From an uncultured Bacteroidales bacterium (GTDB taxonomy: Bacteria > Bacteroidota > Bacteroidia > Bacteroidales > UBA932), in assembly GCA_944322565.1 (NCBI GenBank), contig CALUPG010000002.1, positions 208,522-272,521 of the forward strand: a stretch of 64,000 nt of DNA, read 5' to 3'. The notes under the pieces were generated by a model that saw nothing but the letters and a program-made list of their open reading frames with translations, had not been told where the DNA came from and did not search any database. Shown here piece by piece: positions 775 through 19,690 of the stretch (the stretch's first letter is position 1; each line of letters begins with the position of its first letter). A program made the position numbers and the translations under genes.

Positions 775-2106
775 TTAATTATATCGTGGTTTCTGGAACC
801 ATAGGTCATGTATGTTGAATCCTACTGAAAATGACACATACCTCTCCCTCACCATACTGTTCCTCAGACTTCCCCTCTGTCCGAAATCAACACCGACAGT
901 AATTCCGTTATACCATCTGAACACAGGCAATGTCACACCGAGCGTTATGCCGAATGAGTTCACCACATTGCCGTCAAACAGATAATATGATGTGTCATAA
1001 TATGCACCCGCCCTGTATGCGCAACGGCGCAGGTAATATCTGATGTCATTCCTGTTCGGGACTATCTCAAATCCCGCCCTGACCGAATGCGATACAGTTG
1101 ATGTGAACACCGAACTGCCGTCGGCTGAAAATCCGGGCCTGCTTTCCATCCCCGTATTGCGCCAGTCGGACATGAGGTAGTTGACCTCGGCATTCCACTT
1201 GTCGCCTCCTTTCAAAGAGACTCCTACACCTATTTCATCCCCGAATTTTATACCGTCAGCCGCATCAAGATGATTCACATTGTTTCTCAAAGTATCGGTT
1301 ATCTCCGAGGTATTCGCATAACTGTATTCGGTAAGGCGTCCCCTTACATTTGTCCTGAGCCTGTATGTGGCTCCGACAGTCAATGAAAGGTTGTTTCCGA
1401 GAGGCTGTTCGTACTGAAGCCCGAACTTTCCGGTATATCCCCTGAGAAGCAGATTATATCCGTTGTTGTCAGTCCTGTAGGAATCATCTTCGAAAGCCAT
1501 GTTGTAGACCTTGTCAAGAGAACCGAAATAATATATGAATTCAGCCCCGAGGGACAGCCTTCTCCAGAAAGTGACGGCACCGCCTGCAAACAGCTGATAA
1601 ATGCTGCCTTCTCCGTAATTGCTCAACGCGACATTGCCTGTATTGCCCACTATGTCCTGATCCGTGATGATGGATGAAAACTGATATCCTATGTCACTGA
1701 ACGGGGTGATTCCCACCATAAATGCGGATGACTTGTATATCGGAAAGCTTATTACAAAGTCGTGGATATTGAACGTATTGTTCCCGGAAATCAGTTTGTT
1801 TCCGTCTATGTTCTGCCTGTATATGGTATTTGATTCGGAGAGTCCGAAATCTGCCATGAAAGAAAGGGAATCCCTTGCCGTCAGGGATGCAGGATTCACT
1901 ATGTTTATGAAACGTTTGCTGCGGTTGGCTATACCGACACCTCCCATGCTCCGGTTATATGCTGTCCCTTCTTTTGTAAGATTCCCTATACCATAAATGG
2001 AATATGGTGAAAATGAACCGTATGCCCCATTTTCCTGACTATATGCCAAAGATGTACACAGAAGTAGAGTGCACAATAAGAATATTCTTAAAATAATCCT
2101 ATACAT
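775..2106 (-). CDS. Outer-membrane beta-barrel protein (FadL/TodX-like transport family)
   Basis: 443-aa ORF with signal peptide (..SLAYS|QE), GMGG-like N-terminal motif (RSMGGVGIA), alternating amphipathic strands and an aromatic C-terminus. Confidence 0.65.
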   Translation of the reverse strand: MYRIILRIFLLCTLLLCTSLAYSQENGAYGSFSPYSIYGIGNLTKEGTAYNRSMGGVGIANRSKRFINIVNPASLTARDSLSFMADFGLSESNTIYRQNIDGNKLISGNNTFNIHDFVISFPIYKSSAFMVGITPFSDIGYQFSSIITDQDIVGNTGNVALSNYGEGSIYQLFAGGAVTFWRRLSLGAEFIYYFGSLDKVYNMAFEDDSYRTDNNGYNLLLRGYTGKFGLQYEQPLGNNLSLTVGATYRLRTNVRGRLTEYSYANTSEITDTLRNNVNHLDAADGIKFGDEIGVGVSLKGGDKWNAEVNYLMSDWRNTGMESRPGFSADGSSVFTSTVSHSVRAGFEIVPNRNDIRYYLRRCAYRAGAYYDTSYYLFDGNVVNSFGITLGVTLPVFRWYNGITVGVDFGQRGSLRNSMVRERYVSFSVGFNIHDLWFQKPRYN

Positions 2107-2863: not shown

Positions 2864-5800
2864 TCAAGCAAGTTTTTTCAATGCATTGTATGCGCTGACT
2901 ACCGAAGGAATATTTCTGACCACAAGGCGCAATCTGTTGTCAGGCTGCTTGAGTTCAAATATCCTTGAATTTCTGTTCACGGCATCAAGCACATCTGAAA
3001 ATTTCCTTGACCTGTAATATTTTGAAAGTGGATTCATGATAAAGAAAGCTATCATTATACCGTTCTTTATTATGATTTTCTCAAAGCCCAGTCTCTCTCC
3101 AAGATTCCTTATCTTCACTATATCGAAGAGTCTGGATGTCTCTTCCGGCATCCTTCCGAACCTGTCTTCCATTCTCTGCCTCATCCTTTCTATTTCCCTG
3201 TCGTCAGAAATAGAATCAAGTTCTTTGTATATCCTTATCTTTTCAGAGGATACATTGATGTAACTGTCCGGAATCAATGCCTCGAGGTCAGTGTCTACCA
3301 TACAGTCAGATACGTATGTGTCAGCCTTTGAGGAAGCGGCAATTCCCGTCTCCACGCCAAGTTCTTCCATGGCTTCCGACAATATCTTCTGATATGTCTC
3401 GAGCCCCATGTCTGATATGAACCCGCTCTGTTCGGCGCCGAGCAAATTGCCGGCTCCCCTTATGTCGAGGTCCTGCATGGCTATGTTGAATCCGCTTCCG
3501 AGATCGGAGAATGCTTCTATTGCCTTGAGCCTCCGTCTGGCATCATCTGTCATTGAAGTCATCGGAGGTACGACAAGATAGCAGAATGCCTTCTTGTTGG
3601 AGCGTCCCACTCTTCCCCTGAGCTGATGAAGGTCACTCAGCCCTATGTTCTGGGCCTGATTGATGATGATGGTATTGGCATTCGGTATGTCAAGACCGTT
3701 CTCGATGATTGTAGTGCACAGCAGAAGGTCATAGTCACCGGCCATAAAGTCAAGAATCTTGTTTTCAAGTATCTTTGGTTCCATCTGACCATGAGCCACA
3801 CATATCTTCATGTCGGGTATCATCCTGTGCAGGATATCAGCTATCGACTGAAGTTCCTCCACCCTGTTATGGACGAAGAATACCTGCCCTCCCCTGTTGA
3901 GTTCATAATTTATGATGCCCTTTATCTCATCGTTGTCAAAAAGCATTATTTCCGTCTGCACAGGTATCCTGTTCGGAGGAGGAGTATTTATTATGGAAAG
4001 ATCGCGGGCTCCGAGAAGGGAGAACTGCAGCGTCCTCGGTATCGGTGTGGCCGTAAGTGTAAGCGTGTCGACGGAAAGCTTCATCTGTTTCAACTTTTCC
4101 TTCGCACTTACTCCGAATTTCTGTTCTTCGTCTATTATCAGAAGACCCAGGTCCTTGAATTCAAATCCTTTTCCGAGGAGCTTGTGTGTTCCTATCACTA
4201 TGTCAAGTGTGCCTTTTCTGAGTCTTTCCTGAATCTCAGATATTTCCTTGGATGTCCTCAGGCGGCTTACATAGTCTATAGAACAGGGAAAATCCTTCAG
4301 TCTTCCTGAAAATGTATTGAAGTGCTGCAGTGCCAATATAGTTGTGGGGACAAGTACAGCCACCTGCTTGCTGTCAGCCACTGCCTTGAATGCAGCCCTT
4401 ACTGCAACTTCTGTTTTCCCGAAGCCTACATCACCGCATACAAGCCTGTCCATGGGACAATCATCCTCCATGTCATGTTTCACTGCCTTCACAGCCTTTT
4501 CCTGATCAGGTGTATCCTCATACATGAACGAAGACTCAAGCTCCTCCTGAAGATATGAGTCAGGAGAGAAAGCAAAGCCTTTGGCAGCCTTTCTCTTGGC
4601 ATAGAGCTGAATGAGTTCCTTGGCTATGTCCTTGACTTTTGACTTGGTGCTGCTTTTGAGATTCTGCCAGGTCTTAGAGCCGAGTTTGTTGATTTTTGGA
4701 GGTTCGGAATCCCTTGACTTATATCTTGATATCTTGTGCAGGGCATGTACAGACACAAAGACCGTATCATTGTCCTTATATGATATCTTCACCACTTCAT
4801 GCACCCTTCCCTTGTCATCCTTCATCTTTACGAGACCTCCGAAAATTCCTATACCATAGTCTATATGGACCACATAGTCTCCTATATTGAATGCCGTCAG
4901 GTCATTGATGGTGAGCTGTTCGCTCTTCTCGACAGTTCTTCTGATGCTTACTCTGTGGAATCTGTCGAAAATCTCATGGTCAGAATAACAGCATATCCTG
5001 TCCTCATTGTCAATGAAGCCGCTGTGAATATTTCTTCCTGAACGGAATTCCGGCAAAAGTCCGCTGCTCTGGGACAGGATGGAACGCAGGCGCTCAAGCT
5101 GCGATTCCTTCTCCCCGAAGATATACACCTTATATCCGGATTCCATTTTATCCCTTATATCTGCGGCAAGCAAGTCAAAATTCTTATTGAACGAAGGCTG
5201 AGGGGCAATATTGAATTTTATCACATCCTTGTCACGCACAGATACAGGGGTATCAGTGAAGACATGCCGGAAAGAAAGCAGTGAATCGAAGAAAGGCCGG
5301 TCTCTGTACATGTCTGAGGAATCCAGCCATACCGTACTTCCTTCGGGAAGCCTTTCTCCTATAAGTGACTCAGCATTGCCGTCAGCAGATGTGAAATCCG
5401 GAAAAATCTCAGCTTCATCAGCTTTAGCGACTGACAGCTGGGTATTGCAGTCAAAGACATTGATACTTTCTATCTCATCACCGAAAAATCCTATCCTGTA
5501 AGGATTGTTGTACGAATATGAGAATATGTCTATGATTCCGCCCCTTACCGCAAACTGTCCCGGAGAAGAGACAAAGTCCACCCTCTCGAATCCTTTTGAA
5601 AAAAGAGATTCTATGATGGCATCATGATTGATTTCTTCCCCTGTTTTCAGTCTCAACACTTCCGCACCGATTTTCCGGGCATCGGGAATACCTTCTTCAA
5701 GAGCCTGGGGATATGACACTATTACAAGCAGGTCATCCCCCGAATATTCGGCTATCCTGCCTATTGCCGCAGTTCTCTGGACCCTTAGGGAAGATCTGTA

Positions 5801-6055
5801 GTTGCTCCGTTCAAGACTTCTGCCGGAATCAGGAAGAAAGAACACCCTGTCCCCTTCTATAAGATTATAGAAATCAGCGGCACAATATTCGGCGGACTCA
5901 CGGTCAGGCAGCACCACCAGATTGATTCCTCTCTTCATCACGGAAGAAATGACAAACCATCTTGCGGAAAAGAAAAGTCCGGAACAATATATTTCATTAG
6001 AATCTTCCAGCCTTGCCGAAAGTTCTGAAGATGTCTTCTCGGATATGCCCATCAT
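2864..6055 (-). CDS. mfd: Transcription-repair coupling factor
   Basis: UvrB-homology region (GQFAVRGGIIDIFS), CarD-like RID (GDYVVHIDYGIG), helicase motifs GDVGFGKT, DEEQ, TATPIPRT and QLRGRVGR, and C-terminal TRCF domain. Confidence 0.97.
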   Translation of the reverse strand: MMGISEKTSSELSARLEDSNEIYCSGLFFSARWFVISSVMKRGINLVVLPDRESAEYCAADFYNLIEGDRVFFLPDSGRSLERSNYRSSLRVQRTAAIGRIAEYSGDDLLVIVSYPQALEEGIPDARKIGAEVLRLKTGEEINHDAIIESLFSKGFERVDFVSSPGQFAVRGGIIDIFSYSYNNPYRIGFFGDEIESINVFDCNTQLSVAKADEAEIFPDFTSADGNAESLIGERLPEGSTVWLDSSDMYRDRPFFDSLLSFRHVFTDTPVSVRDKDVIKFNIAPQPSFNKNFDLLAADIRDKMESGYKVYIFGEKESQLERLRSILSQSSGLLPEFRSGRNIHSGFIDNEDRICCYSDHEIFDRFHRVSIRRTVEKSEQLTINDLTAFNIGDYVVHIDYGIGIFGGLVKMKDDKGRVHEVVKISYKDNDTVFVSVHALHKISRYKSRDSEPPKINKLGSKTWQNLKSSTKSKVKDIAKELIQLYAKRKAAKGFAFSPDSYLQEELESSFMYEDTPDQEKAVKAVKHDMEDDCPMDRLVCGDVGFGKTEVAVRAAFKAVADSKQVAVLVPTTILALQHFNTFSGRLKDFPCSIDYVSRLRTSKEISEIQERLRKGTLDIVIGTHKLLGKGFEFKDLGLLIIDEEQKFGVSAKEKLKQMKLSVDTLTLTATPIPRTLQFSLLGARDLSIINTPPPNRIPVQTEIMLFDNDEIKGIINYELNRGGQVFFVHNRVEELQSIADILHRMIPDMKICVAHGQMEPKILENKILDFMAGDYDLLLCTTIIENGLDIPNANTIIINQAQNIGLSDLHQLRGRVGRSNKKAFCYLVVPPMTSMTDDARRRLKAIEAFSDLGSGFNIAMQDLDIRGAGNLLGAEQSGFISDMGLETYQKILSEAMEELGVETGIAASSKADTYVSDCMVDTDLEALIPDSYINVSSEKIRIYKELDSISDDREIERMRQRMEDRFGRMPEETSRLFDIVKIRNLGERLGFEKIIIKNGIMIAFFIMNPLSKYYRSRKFSDVLDAVNRNSRIFELKQPDNRLRLVVRNIPSVVSAYNALKKLA

Positions 6056-6136
6056 TTAACGGATATTGTTGACAACTTGTTGAAAACTCATAAAAAATAT
6101 GTTGAAAACCTGTTGATAAAGCATGAAATAAAAATT

Positions 6137-6144
6137 CAAAAATA
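6137..6144 (-). promoter_or_regulatory. Putative Bacteroidetes -7 promoter element for mfd
   Basis: TATTTTTG on the minus strand matches TAnnTTTG, ~80 nt upstream of the mfd ATG. Confidence 0.45.
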
Positions 6145-6341
6145 CATTATGAAATGAAAATAATCTTTACATACTCCGTTGAAATCAGAAATCAAAATTT
6201 ATCACAAACAATCTCTGAAAAGTTTCCATTATGGTTATCAACATTTCAGTAATATTATAATCAGTTATAAATCAGTATAATATAAATCTTATCAACATTT
6301 CAACACCGGTATAATCACAATAAAGAAAAATATAAAAAGAT

Positions 6342-6349
6342 TATATTTG
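6342..6349 (+). promoter_or_regulatory. Putative Bacteroidetes -7 promoter element for ruvB
   Basis: TATATTTG matches TAnnTTTG, 50 nt upstream of the ruvB ATG. Confidence 0.45.
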
Positions 6350-6398
6350 TATGTTTTTATGATGATGACCGCATGACTGCGGACAAAAAATTGACAAG

Positions 6399-7427
6399 AT
6401 GAACGGACATTTTGACCCCCATGATGTAAATTCGGACAAAGATAAGGAATTTGACGGAATCATAAGGCCTCAGGAACTGGAAGACTTCACCGGACAGGAA
6501 AAGACCGTGGCCAATCTGAAGATATTCATTAAAGCCGCCAAAATGAGAGGGGAGTCCCTTGATCATGTGCTCTTCCACGGGCCTCCGGGACTCGGAAAGA
6601 CTACTCTTGCGCATATCATCGCGAATGAACTTGGAGTCAGCATGAAGGTTACTTCAGGCCCGGTGCTGGACAAGCCGGGAGACCTTGCCGGACTTCTGAC
6701 TTCGCTTGAGGAGGGGGATGTGCTTTTTATCGACGAGATACACCGCCTTGCTCCGGAAGTCGAGGAATACCTCTATTCCGCGATGGAGGATTTTGTAATA
6801 GACATAATGATAGACAAGGGACCGGGTGCACGGTCTGTGCGGATTTCACTGAATCCTTTCACCCTTGTCGGGGCGACCACAAGAAGCGGTCTGCTTACTT
6901 CGCCTTTGAGAGCAAGGTTCGGAATTACCTGTGCACTTGAGTATTATGATACACCCACCCTTGTACATATTGTAAAGAGAAGCGCATCCATCCTTAAGAT
7001 AGGAATAGAAGAGGATGCCGCATACGAGATTGCACTCCGGAGCCGTGGAACACCGCGTATCGCCAATTCTCTGCTCAGGAGAGTAAGGGATTTCGCCCAG
7101 GTCATGGGCAACGGACATATTGACATTGCCATAGCTAAATATGCCCTTGATGCATTGAACATAGACAAGCGTGGACTTGATTCGATAGACAACAAGATAC
7201 TGAGGACCATAATCACAAAATTCAAAGGCGGTCCTGTCGGAGCAAACACCATAGCGACTGCAGTCGGTGAAGATCAGGGGACTCTTGAGGAAGTCTATGA
7301 GCCGTTCCTCATAAAGGAAGGCTTTATTGTCAGGACTCCAAGAGGCAGGGAGGCAACTGAACTTGCCTACAGTCATCTCGGGATAGAAATGTGTGGGACT
7401 CCCGAGCCTGATGCCACATTGTTTTAG
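6399..7427 (+). CDS. ruvB: Holliday junction branch migration helicase RuvB
   Basis: [44 protein letters not shown] and EPFLI...RTPRGR. Confidence 0.98.
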
Positions 7428-7450
7428 TGAGATTTTATCTGCATCATGAT

Positions 7451-8698
7451 ATGAGATTGCTTCCGTATATCATATTTACATTGGCGGCAATTGTCCTGTG
7501 CCATACCTCAGATGCCTGTACGGCTGTAATAATTTCCGGCAAAGTCACTGCCGATGGGCGTCCCCTTATGTGGAAGAACCGCGATTCCGGCTTTCCTGAC
7601 AACAATATAAGGCATTTCAAGGGAGAGATTCACTCGTTTGTGGGGCTTGTCAATTCCGGTTCTGAAGGCGGCGAGGTCTGGGCCGGTGTCAATACTGCGG
7701 GATTTGCAGTGATGAACACCGCATCATACTGTCTGAAGGATGACGATGTGCCTGCTTCACAAATGGACAGGGAGGGGAGAGTCATGTACAGGGCTCTTGA
7801 AATATGTTCCTCAATCGCTGATTTTGAACATTTTCTTGATACTTTGCATCGTCCGATGGGAGTTGAGGCTAATTTCGGATGTATTGATGCACATGGAGGT
7901 GCCGCATGGTATGAGACGGACAATGATTCATGGCATAAAATTGATGTCAACGGGAGCAGAGACGGTTTTGTCGTCGTCACCAATTTTTCTGTTTCCGGCC
8001 GTCCTTCCGGATGGAAAGGAGTGGAAAGATTCATGACTGCCCAGGCTGTTTTCAGTGAAATAAGGGACGAAGGTGCTCTGCCCGGAATATTGCCTTCTGA
8101 TATAATGAACAGACTTTCGAGGTCTTATCGTCACGAAGTGCTTGGGATAGACTTGATTAGGGATTCATCTGCATTTCTTTCAAATACATCGGGACTTTTC
8201 GTTGACCAGGATTTCATACCGAGAAGTTCCACTTCTGCATCAGTCATCATCAGCGGTGCTGCTTCCGGTGATAATCCGCTTTCCTGTGTGCTTTGGGGAG
8301 CCCTAGGTTATCCCTCATGTTCTGTACTTGTTCCCGTGCCGGTATCTGCCGATGACCATGTTCCTGATGCACTGAAATTTTCACCCGAGGAGTCTGACAG
8401 TACTTTCTGCGGTCTTTCCGCAATGCTCAAGAAGAATTTCATCTTCCGGTCTGATGTCAGCAGCATGTCTCATTATATGGACCTCAGGCCAGTGTTTGCC
8501 GGAGTTGGCGGATATCCGTCAATGCTGTCTTGCTGCAGGGAGGCAGAAAGCAAAATATATTCTCTCTTTTATCCTCTGTTTGCAGGATATGTCTGTGGAG
8601 CAGCAGGGGAGGAAGAGTATCTTTCATGTTATGATTCAATATCCGATTCATTTTATGGGATATATCTTGATTATTTTGAAGGTTATATACATCTTTAA
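7451..8698 (+). CDS. Exported Ntn-hydrolase (C45/acyltransferase-like)
   Basis: Signal peptide followed by CTAVIISG...DGRPLMWKNRD, with an N-terminal Cys nucleophile, and AGVNTAGFAVMN. Start placed at ATG 7451. Confidence 0.75.
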   Translation: MRLLPYIIFTLAAIVLCHTSDACTAVIISGKVTADGRPLMWKNRDSGFPDNNIRHFKGEIHSFVGLVNSGSEGGEVWAGVNTAGFAVMNTASYCLKDDDVPASQMDREGRVMYRALEICSSIADFEHFLDTLHRPMGVEANFGCIDAHGGAAWYETDNDSWHKIDVNGSRDGFVVVTNFSVSGRPSGWKGVERFMTAQAVFSEIRDEGALPGILPSDIMNRLSRSYRHEVLGIDLIRDSSAFLSNTSGLFVDQDFIPRSSTSASVIISGAASGDNPLSCVLWGALGYPSCSVLVPVPVSADDHVPDALKFSPEESDSTFCGLSAMLKKNFIFRSDVSSMSHYMDLRPVFAGVGGYPSMLSCCREAESKIYSLFYPLFAGYVCGAAGEEEYLSCYDSISDSFYGIYLDYFEGYIHL

Positions 8699-13998: not shown

Positions 13999-16080
13999 AT
14001 GGGCGGAATAAATTATGATATTATTGTAGTTGGAGGAGGCCATGCGGGTTGTGAGGCAGCGATGGCGGCGGCAAAGATGGGGTCTTCGGTGCTTCTTGTC
14101 ACAATGGACATGGGAAGGTTTGCCCAGATGTCGTGCAATCCTGCAGTAGGAGGTATTGCAAAAGGACAGATTGTCCGTGAGATTGACGCGCTCGGTGGTT
14201 ATACCGGCATTGTCACTGATGCATCTACGCTCCAGTTCAGGATGCTCAACAGGTCAAAAGGACCGGCCATGTGGAGTCCCCGTGCCCAATGCGACAAAAT
14301 GCATTTTAGCCTGAATTGGCGAAAATTGCTTGAAAGTAATTGTAAATTAGATATTTATCAAGATTCTGCAATTGATTTTCTTTTTGATGGTTCGCGTATT
14401 TCAGGGATTTGTACGACTACCGGTGCAATATTCAAATCTCAGGCAGTTATTCTTACTGCCGGGACTTTCCTTGACGGCCGTCTTTTCATCGGTAGGAACA
14501 GTTTTGAGGGAGGAAGGATAGGGGAGTTGTCATCACATGGACTTACCTCCCGTCTTGTCGAGATGGGAATAAGGACTGCGCGAATGAAGACAGGGACTCC
14601 TCCGCGAATTGACATCTCATCAGTTGACATATCCGGGTTACCTGTACAGGAAGGAGATTCTGAACCGGACAAATTTTCATACCTTCCTTTTCTGTCCACA
14701 GCCCAGAACGGAACTCCGCAGATGCCGTGCTATATTCTTCATACCAATCCTGAAGTTCATGATACCCTGCGCTCAGGATTCAAGGATTCACCGCTTTTTT
14801 CAGGAAAAATCACAGGCATAGGCCCAAGGTATTGTCCGAGTATAGAGGACAAGCTCCGTACTTTTGCTGACAAGGATTCACATCAGCTTTTCCTTGAGCC
14901 TGAAGGCAGATCAACCGGAGAATACTATCTTCAGGGATTTTCATCATCCCTTCCTCTTGAAGTTCAGATTGATGCTCTGCACAAGATAAAAGGTCTTGAA
15001 AATGTCAGGATATTCAGGCCGGCCTATGCAGTAGAATATGATTATTTTGACCCGACTCAGTTGAAGCCGACGCTTGAACTAAAGTCTATAGAAAATCTTT
15101 TCTTTGCTGGTCAGGTAAACGGTACTACAGGTTATGAGGAAGCTGCAGCCCAGGGGCTGATGGCCGGTATCAACGCTCATCTTAAAGTTAAGGGAAAAGA
15201 GCCGTTTGTCCTCAAGAGGGACCAGGCATATATCGGAGTTCTGATAGATGACCTGATAACCAAAGGTGTTGATGAACCATACAGGATGTTTACTTCCCGG
15301 GCTGAATACAGGATTCTTCTCAGACAGGACAATGCCGACATGAGGCTCACGCCCTTGTCATATAATATAGGTCTGGCTGACAAGTTCAGGTATGAATATA
15401 CAATGAAAAAATATGATTCTATATCCGGCCTCAATACTTTCTTCTCAGAAGTGTCGATTCATCCAGATATAGTCAACAGTTATCTTGCATCAGTGGATAC
15501 GGCTGCAATAGACTCCAAGAAGAAAATTTCAGACCTGGTAATAAGACCTCAAGTAAAATTATCGGATATATTTAATTTTGTTCCACGTGGAACTTTTCAA
15601 AGAAAAGGAATCGATATAGATGAAATTTTTTCCAGTCCATTGAAGAATATCTTTGGTGATATGAGATATAATGATATTCTTGCAAATATGGATTGTACCT
15701 GCTGTCATTCTGATTCTGCGTTGAATGGAGCCGTAAGTGTTTTGAAAAATAATACGGACTACCCTTTGTCAGAAATTAATGATGTCGATATGGACAGTCG
15801 TATTTTGAATATCTGCAGAAGAGAGATTCTAGAATCTTGTGAGATATCCATAAAATATAAAGGTTATATTGAAAGGGAACAAAAAATGGCGGACAAGATA
15901 ATGCGGCTTGAAAATCTTGCTATACCTGAGGATTTTGATTTTGATAAGGTGGAAAGCCTTTCGATTGAATGCCGTCAGAAACTCAAAAAATATTCCCCGA
16001 GGACCATTGCCCAGGCCTCGAGGATTTCCGGTGTCTCTCCTGCCGACATATCTGTGCTTCTTGTTTATTTTGGCAGATGA
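13999..16080 (+). CDS. mnmG: tRNA U34 modification enzyme MnmG (GidA), with a ~70-aa insertion
   Basis: [50 protein letters not shown] and SRAEYR. Confidence 0.97.
15579..15594. promoter_or_regulatory. parS site (ParB-binding palindrome) inside mnmG
   Basis: TGTTCCACGTGGAACT, with a perfect 14-bp palindromic core matching the parS consensus. Confidence 0.85.
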
Positions 16081-16110
16081 GCAGGGATTCAGGCAGGGAT
16101 ATTATCGGAT

Positions 16111-16323
16111 TTATTTCCTTTTGATAATGATGGTGATTACTCGTACTAATCCGTACAAGAATAGAATCCACCATATAATCTGATTGAACAAGGGCATTTC
16201 TGCTATGTCATTCTGTGAATATCCGAGATATAGGAAAATGCCTGAGAATACCATAATGAGGAGTGGAACAAGGAGTTTTATCATCCAGTGCATTCCTCTT
16301 TTTTTATTTTCTTGTGTTTCCAT
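16111..16323 (-). CDS. Small two-TM membrane protein, unknown function
   Basis: 70 aa with two hydrophobic helices and a basic C-terminus. Co-oriented downstream of ruvA and fills the gap to mnmG. Confidence 0.65.
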   Translation of the reverse strand: METQENKKRGMHWMIKLLVPLLIMVFSGIFLYLGYSQNDIAEMPLFNQIIWWILFLYGLVRVITIIIKRK

Positions 16324-16332
16324 GATTAATAT

Positions 16333-16348
16333 TGTTCCACGTGGAACC
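16333..16348. promoter_or_regulatory. parS site, intergenic
   Basis: TGTTCCACGTGGAACC between the ruvA stop and the small ORF start. Confidence 0.88.
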
Positions 16349-16349
16349 T

Positions 16350-16937
16350 TTATAGTTTTTTAAGAGCGAATTTGATGATAGATTCAAGGCTGGCCTCAGG
16401 ATTTTCTTTCATCACAGCGGATACTGCTTTATTTACATTGGCTTTGGTGAAACCAAGCAATACAAGTGCTGTTACAGCCTCTTCAGCTATTGCGTTGTTC
16501 TGTTGAGTGAGCATCAGTCCGGATTCGTTGCCGCTGCCTTTGACAATCTTGTCTTTCAGTTCAAGAATAAGTCTCTGGGCGCTTTTGAGACCGATGCCCT
16601 TTATGCTTTTTATCCTGTTGATGTCTTCGGCTATTATTGCGTTCCGGATTTCTTCAGATGACATTGAGGAGAGCATCATCCTTGCTGTGGCTGCGCCTAT
16701 TCCTGATACTCCTATCAGTAGTCTGAAAAGTTCCCGTTCCTCTTTGGTTCCGAAACCATAATAGAGTTCTTCATCCTCTCGAATGTAATGGTGAATGTAT
16801 ACCTTCACATCCTTTTTGTTTTCCAGCTGGCTGAATGTCTGCAGGGAAATCAGGATGTGATAACCTATTCCGCAACATTCAACAACAGCATCAGCGGGGG
16901 TAAGCTCTGCAATTTCACCTTTTATATATTCTATCAT
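16350..16937 (-). CDS. ruvA: Holliday junction DNA-binding protein RuvA
   Basis: MIEYIKG, GIGY, LIGVSGIG and IKGIGLKSAQRLILELKDK HhH motifs, and C-terminal ALVLLGF. Confidence 0.97.
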   Translation of the reverse strand: MIEYIKGEIAELTPADAVVECCGIGYHILISLQTFSQLENKKDVKVYIHHYIREDEELYYGFGTKEERELFRLLIGVSGIGAATARMMLSSMSSEEIRNAIIAEDINRIKSIKGIGLKSAQRLILELKDKIVKGSGNESGLMLTQQNNAIAEEAVTALVLLGFTKANVNKAVSAVMKENPEASLESIIKFALKKL

Positions 16938-17078
16938 TTGAGTATGGCGTTTATATTGGGCAAAATTATTAAAAAAATAATTATCATTTTAAAAATCATT
17001 TCCTCTGATGCCAACTGATTATAGTTTTTGTTAAATTTGCACGCTTAACAGGTGGTTGGTATCAATAGATTGTTGATT

Positions 17079-18332
17079 ATGGATGTATCAGAAGTAAGGC
17101 AGTTGTTTCCGGCATTGGAGCGTAAGGTGTACGGCAAGCCTTTAGTATATTTTGACAATGCCGCCACTGTGCAGCGTCCGCAGCAGGTCATGGATGAGTG
17201 GCTGAGGATGACTTCGGTCTGCAATGCCAATATTCACCGGGCGGTCCATCTTCTTGCAGAAGAAGCCACAGCTTCATACGAGGATGCAAGGGAGGCTGTG
17301 GCGAGGTTCATCAATGCTCCAGACAAGAGTCAGATAATATTTACTTCAGGCGTCACGGCATCAATCAATCTTGTGGCGTTTTCTTTCGGCGAGGCATTTG
17401 TATCAGAAAATGATGAGGTGATAGTGACCCAGGCCGAACATCATTCCAATATAGTTCCTTGGCAGATGATGTGTCAAAGGAAAAAGGCAATACTCAAGGT
17501 GTTGCCCGTTGATGAAAATGGACATCTAAGGACCGACATGCTTGAGCAGCTTCTTACGGACCGGACAAGGATTGTTGCAGTGACACATATTTCCAATGTT
17601 CTCGGAATAGTCAATCCGATAAAGGAAATAATAGGGATATGCCACAGGTACAATGTGCCTGTGCTTGTGGACGGGGCCCAGGGAATAGTTCACAGCAAGG
17701 TAGATGTTCAGGATCTGGACTGTGACTTTTATGCTTTTTCCGGACATAAGGTATATGCGGCCACAGGCACAGGAGTACTGTACGGGAAGAAGAACCTGCT
17801 TGATGCTATGCCTCCTTATATGGGAGGCGGGGAGATGGTAGGGACAGTTAAATTCAGTGCCACCACCTATGCTCCGGTACCGCTCAAGTTTGAGGCGGGA
17901 ACACAGAATATTGCAGGCGCTTCAACTTTGAAGCCCGCTCTGGAGCTCGCGACAAAGTTGAATTCTGACCCCTCTTTGGCGGAATATACGGACAATGTGC
18001 GTGACTTTCTTCTGTATTCACTTATGTCAGATGACCGTATCCGTCTCTATGGTATACCGGCAGGTAGTAAAAATGATGACTGCGGCAAATCTCAGGAAGA
18101 AAAGATACCTCTCTTCTCATTCTCTGTGAGAGGAGTACATCACGAAGATCTTGCATTGGTTCTTGACAAGATGGGAATAGCCGTAAGATCAGGGCAGATG
18201 TGTGCAGAGCCGCTGATGGACAGATATGGGGTGACAGGTATGCTGCGTGCTTCACTTGCTCCTTACAATACAATGGAAGAGGCAGAATATTTTATAAAAT
18301 GCCTTGACAAGGCAATAAAAATGTTGAATTAG
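17079..18332 (+). CDS. sufS: Cysteine desulfurase, SufS (group II)
   Basis: YFDNAAT, EHHSN, VDGAQ, SGHK (PLP Lys), FEAGT and RSGQMCA. Confidence 0.93.
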   Translation: MDVSEVRQLFPALERKVYGKPLVYFDNAATVQRPQQVMDEWLRMTSVCNANIHRAVHLLAEEATASYEDAREAVARFINAPDKSQIIFTSGVTASINLVAFSFGEAFVSENDEVIVTQAEHHSNIVPWQMMCQRKKAILKVLPVDENGHLRTDMLEQLLTDRTRIVAVTHISNVLGIVNPIKEIIGICHRYNVPVLVDGAQGIVHSKVDVQDLDCDFYAFSGHKVYAATGTGVLYGKKNLLDAMPPYMGGGEMVGTVKFSATTYAPVPLKFEAGTQNIAGASTLKPALELATKLNSDPSLAEYTDNVRDFLLYSLMSDDRIRLYGIPAGSKNDDCGKSQEEKIPLFSFSVRGVHHEDLALVLDKMGIAVRSGQMCAEPLMDRYGVTGMLRASLAPYNTMEEAEYFIKCLDKAIKMLN

Positions 18333-19196: not shown

Positions 19197-19210
19197 CTGT
19201 GCTTTTCCGT

Positions 19211-19690
19211 ATGGAAGAATATCTTCTGTATCTGGCTCTCGGCTCCAATATCGGAGACAGGAAAGGAAACATCATTGAGGCTCTTGCTCGTCTTGACAAG
19301 GCTTTAGGCTGTCATTATGATGCTGTTTCCGATTTGTTTGAGACTGATCCGTGGGGGTTTGAGGCGGATGAAAAATTCATGAATGCAGTTGTGCGTTATG
19401 TCATGTCAGTTCCACGGGGAACATCGGAATCTAAGGAATGTCTGAACGGTCATGCAGATGAAGCGAGAAAGATACTGCGGATATGCAAAGACATAGAGAC
19501 ATCCATGGGCCGGACGGAAAATGTTGAATACGGACCGGATGGGAAACGCATATATCATTCACGAATCATCGATATTGACATTCTTATGGCAGGGGACTGG
19601 AAGATTGATCTTCCCGAACTTAAAATCCCTCATCCGCTGATGCATGAAAGGGATTTCGTGATGGTCCCGCTAAGGCAGATTATGGAATAG
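19211..19690 (+). CDS. folK: 2-amino-4-hydroxy-6-hydroxymethyldihydropteridine diphosphokinase
   Basis: LALGSNIG, ETDPWG, FMNAVV, RIIDIDIL and IPHPLMHERDFV. Confidence 0.92.
   Translation: MEEYLLYLALGSNIGDRKGNIIEALARLDKALGCHYDAVSDLFETDPWGFEADEKFMNAVVRYVMSVPRGTSESKECLNGHADEARKILRICKDIETSMGRTENVEYGPDGKRIYHSRIIDIDILMAGDWKIDLPELKIPHPLMHERDFVMVPLRQIME
19408..19423. promoter_or_regulatory. Degenerate parS-like site inside folK
   Basis: AGTTCCACGGGGAACA, 14/16 match to TGTTCCACGTGGAACA. Confidence 0.55.

Follow-up and report, generated by a model that had tools for sequence, protein, structure and literature searches.

In Bacillus subtilis, the parS (Spo0J) sites, which are said to have been described by Lin and Grossman in 1998 and by Breier and Grossman in 2007, are reportedly 16-bp palindromes of the same family as the one described below, few in number and origin-proximal, and several of them reportedly lie inside genes, including spo0J itself. 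To our knowledge, no associated protein insertion has been described for these sites. The B. subtilis consensus, TGTTNCACGTGAAACA, contains TGA in one frame, unlike the site analyzed here.

In Pseudomonas aeruginosa, parS2 and parS3 (TGTTCCACGTGGAACA) are the sites best bound by the cognate ParB, parS1 and parS4 share a second sequence (TGTTCCACGTGGAACC), and either parS2 alone or parS4 alone suffices for segregation (PMC4368675; Jecz et al., 2015). Nine of the ten parS sites of that organism fall within coding sequences (PMC4368675). Because the authors state that their substitutions preserve the protein, reading frames can be deduced from the silent-mutation Table 1 of the same paper: parS3 appears to be read as VPRGT, and parS1, 2, 7, 8 and 9 as FHVE. 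The locus described below resembles that of P. aeruginosa in having the same sequences and an origin-proximal cluster of parS sites. It differs in that one fixed linker of a single protein, MnmG, carries the site across about 100 species, beside an insert of variable length, and in that parAB and dnaA lie on another contig. Furthermore, ParB binding and a role in segregation were measured in P. aeruginosa, whereas here we infer both, along with the spreading of ParB from the site. Full-text searches of the literature did not turn up any article on peptides imposed by parS, or on VPRGT in this sense.

A parS-like palindrome within mnmG

The stretch of DNA that we analyzed (64,000 nucleotides from an uncultured Bacteroidales bacterium; hereafter the window) contains an mnmG (gidA) gene at 13999..16080 on the plus strand, encoding a protein of 693 aa. 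The protein matches PF01134 (E=1e-154), PF21680 and PF13932, as well as MnmG structures in the PDB (3cp8, from Chlorobium, E=3e-192), and comprises the domains GIDA (residues 7-401), GIDA_C_1st (464-530) and SAM_GIDA_C (633-688). An AlphaFold2 model based on a 92-sequence alignment has a pLDDT of 91.3 and a pTM of 0.92. In the 11 other families of the order that we compared, MnmG is 622-626 aa long, in agreement with the usual length of about 625 aa assumed in the original prediction. When aligned with 3cp8, residues 527-604 of the query are unmatched over a segment in which the Chlorobium chain advances just 11 residues, corresponding to an insert of about 67-70 aa. The open reading frame, the Pfam matches and this alignment thus bear out the earlier description of a 693-aa MnmG with an insertion in its C-terminal domain.

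At the head of that insertion, as had also been described, the codons for VPRGT form a palindrome. The 14-base sequence GTTCCACGTGGAAC, at 15580-15593, is a perfect palindrome that is read in frame as GTT CCA CGT GGA AC (codons 528-532, V528-P-R-G-T532); it is the core of the 16-mer TGTTCCACGTGGAACT at 15579..15594, which we refer to as parS-1. The site lies in the linker joining the first C-terminal helical subdomain of MnmG to its C-terminal helical bundle, and in the AlphaFold2 model VPRG adopts a short coil between helices, with high confidence. The 16-mer matches the 16-bp inverted repeat tGTTNCACGTGNAACa that we took as defining parS. It differs from P. aeruginosa parS2 and parS3 at the outermost base alone (T instead of A), and its 14-base core is that of P. 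aeruginosa parS1-4.

Two related sites lie nearby. The first, parS-2 (TGTTCCACGTGGAACC, 16333..16348), is intergenic, 254 nt past the mnmG stop codon and immediately adjoining the stop codon of ruvA (16350..16937, minus strand), which is convergent with mnmG; the 16-mer of parS-2 is that of P. aeruginosa parS1 and parS4 (PMC4368675). The second, parS-3 (AGTTCCACGGGGAACA, 19408..19423), has one mismatch in the core and lies in frame within folK. Shuffled versions of the window contained on average 0.21 sites with two or fewer mismatches to the 16-mer, compared to three in the real one, and none of 100 shuffles reached three. In the whole 2.18-Mb genome, only these three sites (15580, 16334 and 19409), all within 3.8 kb, have at most one mismatch. 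The pattern holds among congeners: each of 24 congeneric genomes has one or two perfect 14-mers, none of them more than about 2.6 kb from the mnmG site, whereas the reversed pattern, scanned as a control, gave a single match in 41 genomes. In five of the genomes (G003, G005, G014, G016 and G020), two of which are at least 93% complete, the copy within mnmG is the only perfect site.

The position of these sites relative to the probable replication origin is also as expected for parS. GC skew changes sign at 5000..8000, a region that we take to be the probable origin, about 9 kb to the left of parS-1, and the cumulative GC skew of the contig reaches its minimum at window position ~6-7 kb. The three sites thus lie about 9-13 kb from the switch, all to one side of it, and mnmG is transcribed co-directionally with replication. 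GC content falls to 0.395 at window positions 15001-17000, which include the 3' end of mnmG and parS sites, from about 0.44-0.49 nearby.

The genome encodes a canonical parA-parB operon. A profile search found a single gene with a ParB_N domain (C3:92556-92834, 122 bits); the open reading frames at this locus include, at 994..1992 on the minus strand of L034, a ParB with the sequence ISGERRFRA, of the GERRxR type, and an adjoining ParA with the Walker-type motif KGGVGKT. The GERRxR motif is a mark of CTP-dependent ParB clamps. Both parA-parB (at ~92-94 kb) and dnaA (at ~154 kb) are found on contig C3, which is not the contig that carries the parS cluster and the GC-skew origin, and the classic neighborhood of dnaA and mnmG-rsmG-parAB is thus dispersed in this lineage. 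Hi-C data for gut Bacteroidales likewise place parS clusters at the origin, away from dnaA (PMC10197239).

We regard the palindrome as very probably a working parS. An alternative is that it is bound by some factor other than ParB, as the operator of a transcription factor or the target of a restriction-modification system, or that it acts as an RNA hairpin or attenuator. Palindromes centered on CACGTG do serve other DNA-binding proteins, and the TTTTC that follows the site here gives it a faint likeness to a terminator. We nevertheless consider such a role very unlikely, given that the palindrome matches parS sites defined by experiment exactly or almost exactly (P. aeruginosa; PMC4368675) and that the 24 genomes carry one to three copies each, all of them origin-proximal; a restriction-modification target would not be limited to one locus, and an RNA stem would be just 5 bp. 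We also rejected an RNA terminator specifically, as the base after the site varies among species (A, T or G) and the T-run is not conserved.

If the site is indeed a parS, established ParABS biology suggests how it would work. The single ParB would recognize the palindrome and load onto the DNA there; on binding CTP, ParB dimers would form closed clamps and slide along the neighboring DNA, including the origin about 9 kb away; and ParA would then segregate the ParB-DNA complex. Because this parS lies inside mnmG, its fixed bases are also translated and must read V-P-R-G-T in this frame.

A DNA site that dictates five amino acids of MnmG

In all 19 congeners, the pentapeptide is found at the same position (as VPHGT twice and as VLCGT once), and 16 of the 19 have the exact sequence GTT CCA CGT GGA AC. 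To put this into context, we counted the codons used in each of 149 alignment columns, namely those with a V, P, G, T, A or R shared by 16 or more of the 19 congeners. The mean is 3.9 codons per column and only five columns use a single codon, four of which are codons 528-531.

Public genomes contributed 80 further species, comprising Candidatus Cryptobacteroides and unnamed Bacteroidales MAGs from the gut of ruminants, horses, birds and humans, which together with the 19 congeners gave a clade set of 99. The 14-mer is exact in 85 of these, has one mismatch in 11 and two in another 2, and is absent from one (L088); the VPRGT pentapeptide is kept in 89. Six mnmG genes nested firmly in this Cryptobacteroides-like clade are on contigs titled Barnesiella, Kurthia, Anaerotignum, Methanomethylophilaceae, Treponemataceae and Acetatifactor (L063, L065, L074, L077, L092 and L108), which are probably mislabelled bins of one 'cleanbin' submission series.

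Such conservation could in principle reflect the protein, with VPRGT being a motif of MnmG itself (such as a turn on which folding, or the docking of its partner MnmE, depends) and the palindrome a coincidence of codon choice. The 89 of 99 sequences that keep the peptide, the confidently modeled turn and the suitability of Pro and Gly for a turn would all fit. The codons, however, do not: VPRG can be encoded by 384 codon combinations, of which a single one occurs, and the 85 intact sites include no silent variant. Nor does the distribution, as the motif is absent from the solved MnmG structures and from every other Bacteroidales family compared, where an unrelated, variable linker occupies its position, while the same DNA word is also found between genes beside mnmG and in loops of two unrelated enzymes, and nowhere else in the genome. 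Selection on VPRGT as a protein motif therefore seems to us extremely improbable.

The sites that have decayed point the same way. About five species have silent changes (CGA, GGC, CCC, CCT), and about 9-10 have a residue replaced by His, Cys, Arg or Leu. These numbers approximate the 1:2 ratio expected under neutrality, which implies that the peptide is not what is being kept. In the short flanks that we examined, a perfect parS was found near 7 of 14 decayed in-gene sites and near 48 of 85 intact ones (Fisher p=0.77), so that decayed sites were no more often backed up; a strict need for one perfect site might have been expected to produce such a link. A vector artefact was also considered, since LVPRGS is a thrombin site and the LVPRGT of some relatives resembles it, but was rejected because about 100 independent MAGs share the motif, written with a fixed set of codons that is not that of vectors.

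At the level of sequence, these comparisons establish that the stretch is dual-coded, a DNA site dictating five amino acids (VPRGT) of MnmG. They support the original prediction of a centromere site within a tolerant protein loop, and the check that it proposed comes out accordingly: the synonymous positions of the 14-mer are held fixed and the linker and insert around it change, a result that favors constraint at the DNA level. Selection would act on the DNA word, leaving the pentapeptide as a by-product.

The linker and insert beside parS

Beyond this clade, too, parS is found at the 3' end of mnmG. Other Bacteroidales carry the same or a nearly identical 14-mer beside mnmG, but there it is intergenic and imposes nothing on the protein: in 8 of the 11 other families, only 2-8 nt separate the stop codon of mnmG from the start of parS (L024, L025, L027, L029-L032 and other outgroup loci). 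This implies that the association is old and that the in-gene copy is a clade-specific addition. The latter lies about 300 nt upstream of the post-stop position in the short forms of the gene and is specific to the Cryptobacteroides-like clade. In some Cryptobacteroides, parS abuts or overlaps the mnmG stop codon (L007, L105). More distantly, a parS read in the same frame as VSRET (GTT TCA CGT GAA AC) is present in the C-terminal domain of MnmG from Cupriavidus, a Methylophilaceae MAG and two Clostridia MAGs (L164, L204, L224 and L240). These four cases align to window residues ~474-501 rather than to the 528-532 linker, and they have no insert.

In the window, the lineage-specific insert comprises residues 533-604 (15595..15810, plus strand), with a GC content of 0.33 versus 0.44 for the rest of the gene. 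AlphaFold2 predicts that it forms several short helices leading into a long helix at 598-619, with pLDDT values of ~80-94. It is fast evolving: among 22 species with long inserts, amino acid identity is 33% in the insert versus 81-84% in the core, and dN/dS is about 0.46 versus 0.04-0.065, with dS near saturation. GC content is lower in the insert than in the core in 42 of 43 genes (0.38 vs 0.45). We found no paralogue or duplication of the insert by blastp against the rest of MnmG or by tblastn against the window and the whole genome, which returned the self-match only. An intein or other mobile element was rejected, as the protein contains no splicing or homing-endonuclease Pfam domain and tblastn found no other genomic copies.

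The length of the linker varies continuously from 12 to 113 aa across the clade with parS retained, compared to 22-25 aa in the outgroup (reference columns 524-612). In a maximum-likelihood tree of the MnmG core, long linkers are found in the basal lineages, in nearly all of one major subclade (65-113 aa) and in the basal grade of the other (97, 80, 67 and 57 aa), and the short linkers (12-33 aa) are nested within long-linker lineages. The long inserts of both subclades share a VPRGTFxK(F/Y) head, an S(Y/F)xxAxx(V/I)LxxNxxYP middle and an NY(R/K)(R/K)E(I/V)L tail; conserved stretches within them include NT(D/E)YP and NY(R/K)(R/K)EIL. These features suggest that the long insert is ancestral and was trimmed repeatedly and independently, with each deletion stopping at parS. 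On the most economical reading of the tree, parS and the long insert would both have arisen near the base of the clade.

An alternative is that parS and the insert came as one block of DNA, or that the linker was lengthened to house the centromere, in which case the insert would be a carrier or passenger whose properties as DNA (AT-rich and plastic in length) outweigh those of the protein. Both features do map to the same branch, being absent from MnmG in all 11 other families and present together in basal members of the clade, and the low GC content and 33% identity of the insert noted above would also be expected from a passenger. However, parS has been kept in the roughly half of the clade in which little or nothing of the insert is left, so parS does not need it; the dN/dS of 0.46 is below 1, the motifs are conserved and the helices are predicted with good pLDDT; and neither a donor sequence nor an internal duplication was found. 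A joint arrival thus remains a tenable but, in our view, rather unlikely account.

The original prediction had asked whether the presence of the insert tracks that of parS, and it does not. The site, with two or fewer mismatches, is found in 98 of the 99 clade members regardless of linker length, and the one exception, the basal member L088, has an insert. The suggestion that the extra peptide may be a passenger fares better in one respect, since the insert is dispensable for parS, than in the other: its dN/dS, its partly conserved motifs and its predicted helices argue that it is not a pure passenger. It is probably weakly constrained and structured, and not needed for parS. The cysteine cluster for which a function had been left open (C566-T-C-C-H570, 15694..15708, plus strand; MDCTCCH at residues 564-570) appears to be incidental. 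It lies in the low-confidence center of the insert, where residues 567-570 (T-C-C-H) are the only stretch of MnmG with a pLDDT below 50, and we found it in none of the relatives compared, making it unique to this genome; a metal-binding site was therefore rejected.

Overall, we think it highly likely that the 15580-15593 palindrome functions as a chromosomal parS, that the DNA word is what selection acts on with VPRGT as its by-product, and that the insert is a separate and dispensable feature. The insert of about 70 residues would have arisen at or near the base of the Cryptobacteroides-like clade and then have been shortened or deleted many times, up to the boundary of parS.

parS in neighboring genes, and implications

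MnmG is not the only enzyme to host the site. In folK (19199..19690), parS-3 is read as GTT CCA CGG GGA ACA, with CGG in place of CGT, and again encodes VPRGT (residues 71-75), which opens a loop of FolK that looks longer than usual. In many relatives another site lies in sufS, where it is read as YGVPRGT (L116-L120, L074, L090, L099-L111). The SufS of the window (17052..18332) has no parS at this position but instead the loop IPAGS (18054..18068, plus strand) plus nine extra residues. The SufS site is a perfect 14-mer in the short-linker crown group and GTTCCNCGTGGAAC in the long-insert subclade, with N being T, C or G and all other silent positions frozen. The persistence of VPRGT in the SufS of subclade A despite this one varying synonymous base implies that the peptide can outlast the perfect palindrome for some time.

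Three unrelated enzymes (MnmG, SufS and FolK) thus host parS in one shared reading frame. We propose that the suitability of Pro and Gly for exposed turns explains why V-P-R-G-T is the recurrent frame; the other frames would give xSTWN or FHVE. A further variation is found in L084, whose mnmG has two in-gene sites, at codons 527 and 575, both with the sequence GTTCCACGTGGCAC. The first encodes VPRGT, and the second, which falls within the insert, encodes SFHVAQ. Both copies carry the same G-to-C variant and there is no perfect site downstream, which suggests either gene conversion or a shifted ParB preference.

One could go further and propose that the centromere has moved almost wholly into coding DNA, occupying surface loops of mnmG, sufS and folK always in the VPRGT frame, with the mnmG copy the sole high-affinity site in some species. 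The adjacent AT-rich, length-plastic stretch would then be kept, or remodeled again and again, for a reason at the DNA level (ParB loading, clamp release or SMC entry), making the linker, in effect, centromere real estate. We offer this as a speculative extension that we think improbable as a whole; the reading that we favor is the simpler one above, of a DNA word under selection beside a dispensable insert.

No new mechanism is implied by these findings, as in-gene parS sites are already established in Pseudomonas and Bacillus. They do provide a clean natural experiment on overlapping codes, in which about 100 species share five residues, down to the codon, that are fixed by a 14-base site, next to a linker that ranges from 12 to 113 residues. 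They also carry a warning for annotation, in that VPRGT, VSRET or FHVE conserved in origin-proximal genes may reflect selection at the DNA rather than the protein level. For uncultured gut Bacteroidales, in which dnaA and parAB are elsewhere, the site offers a practical marker of the origin and centromere, and its value lies mainly in this use and as an evolutionary case study.
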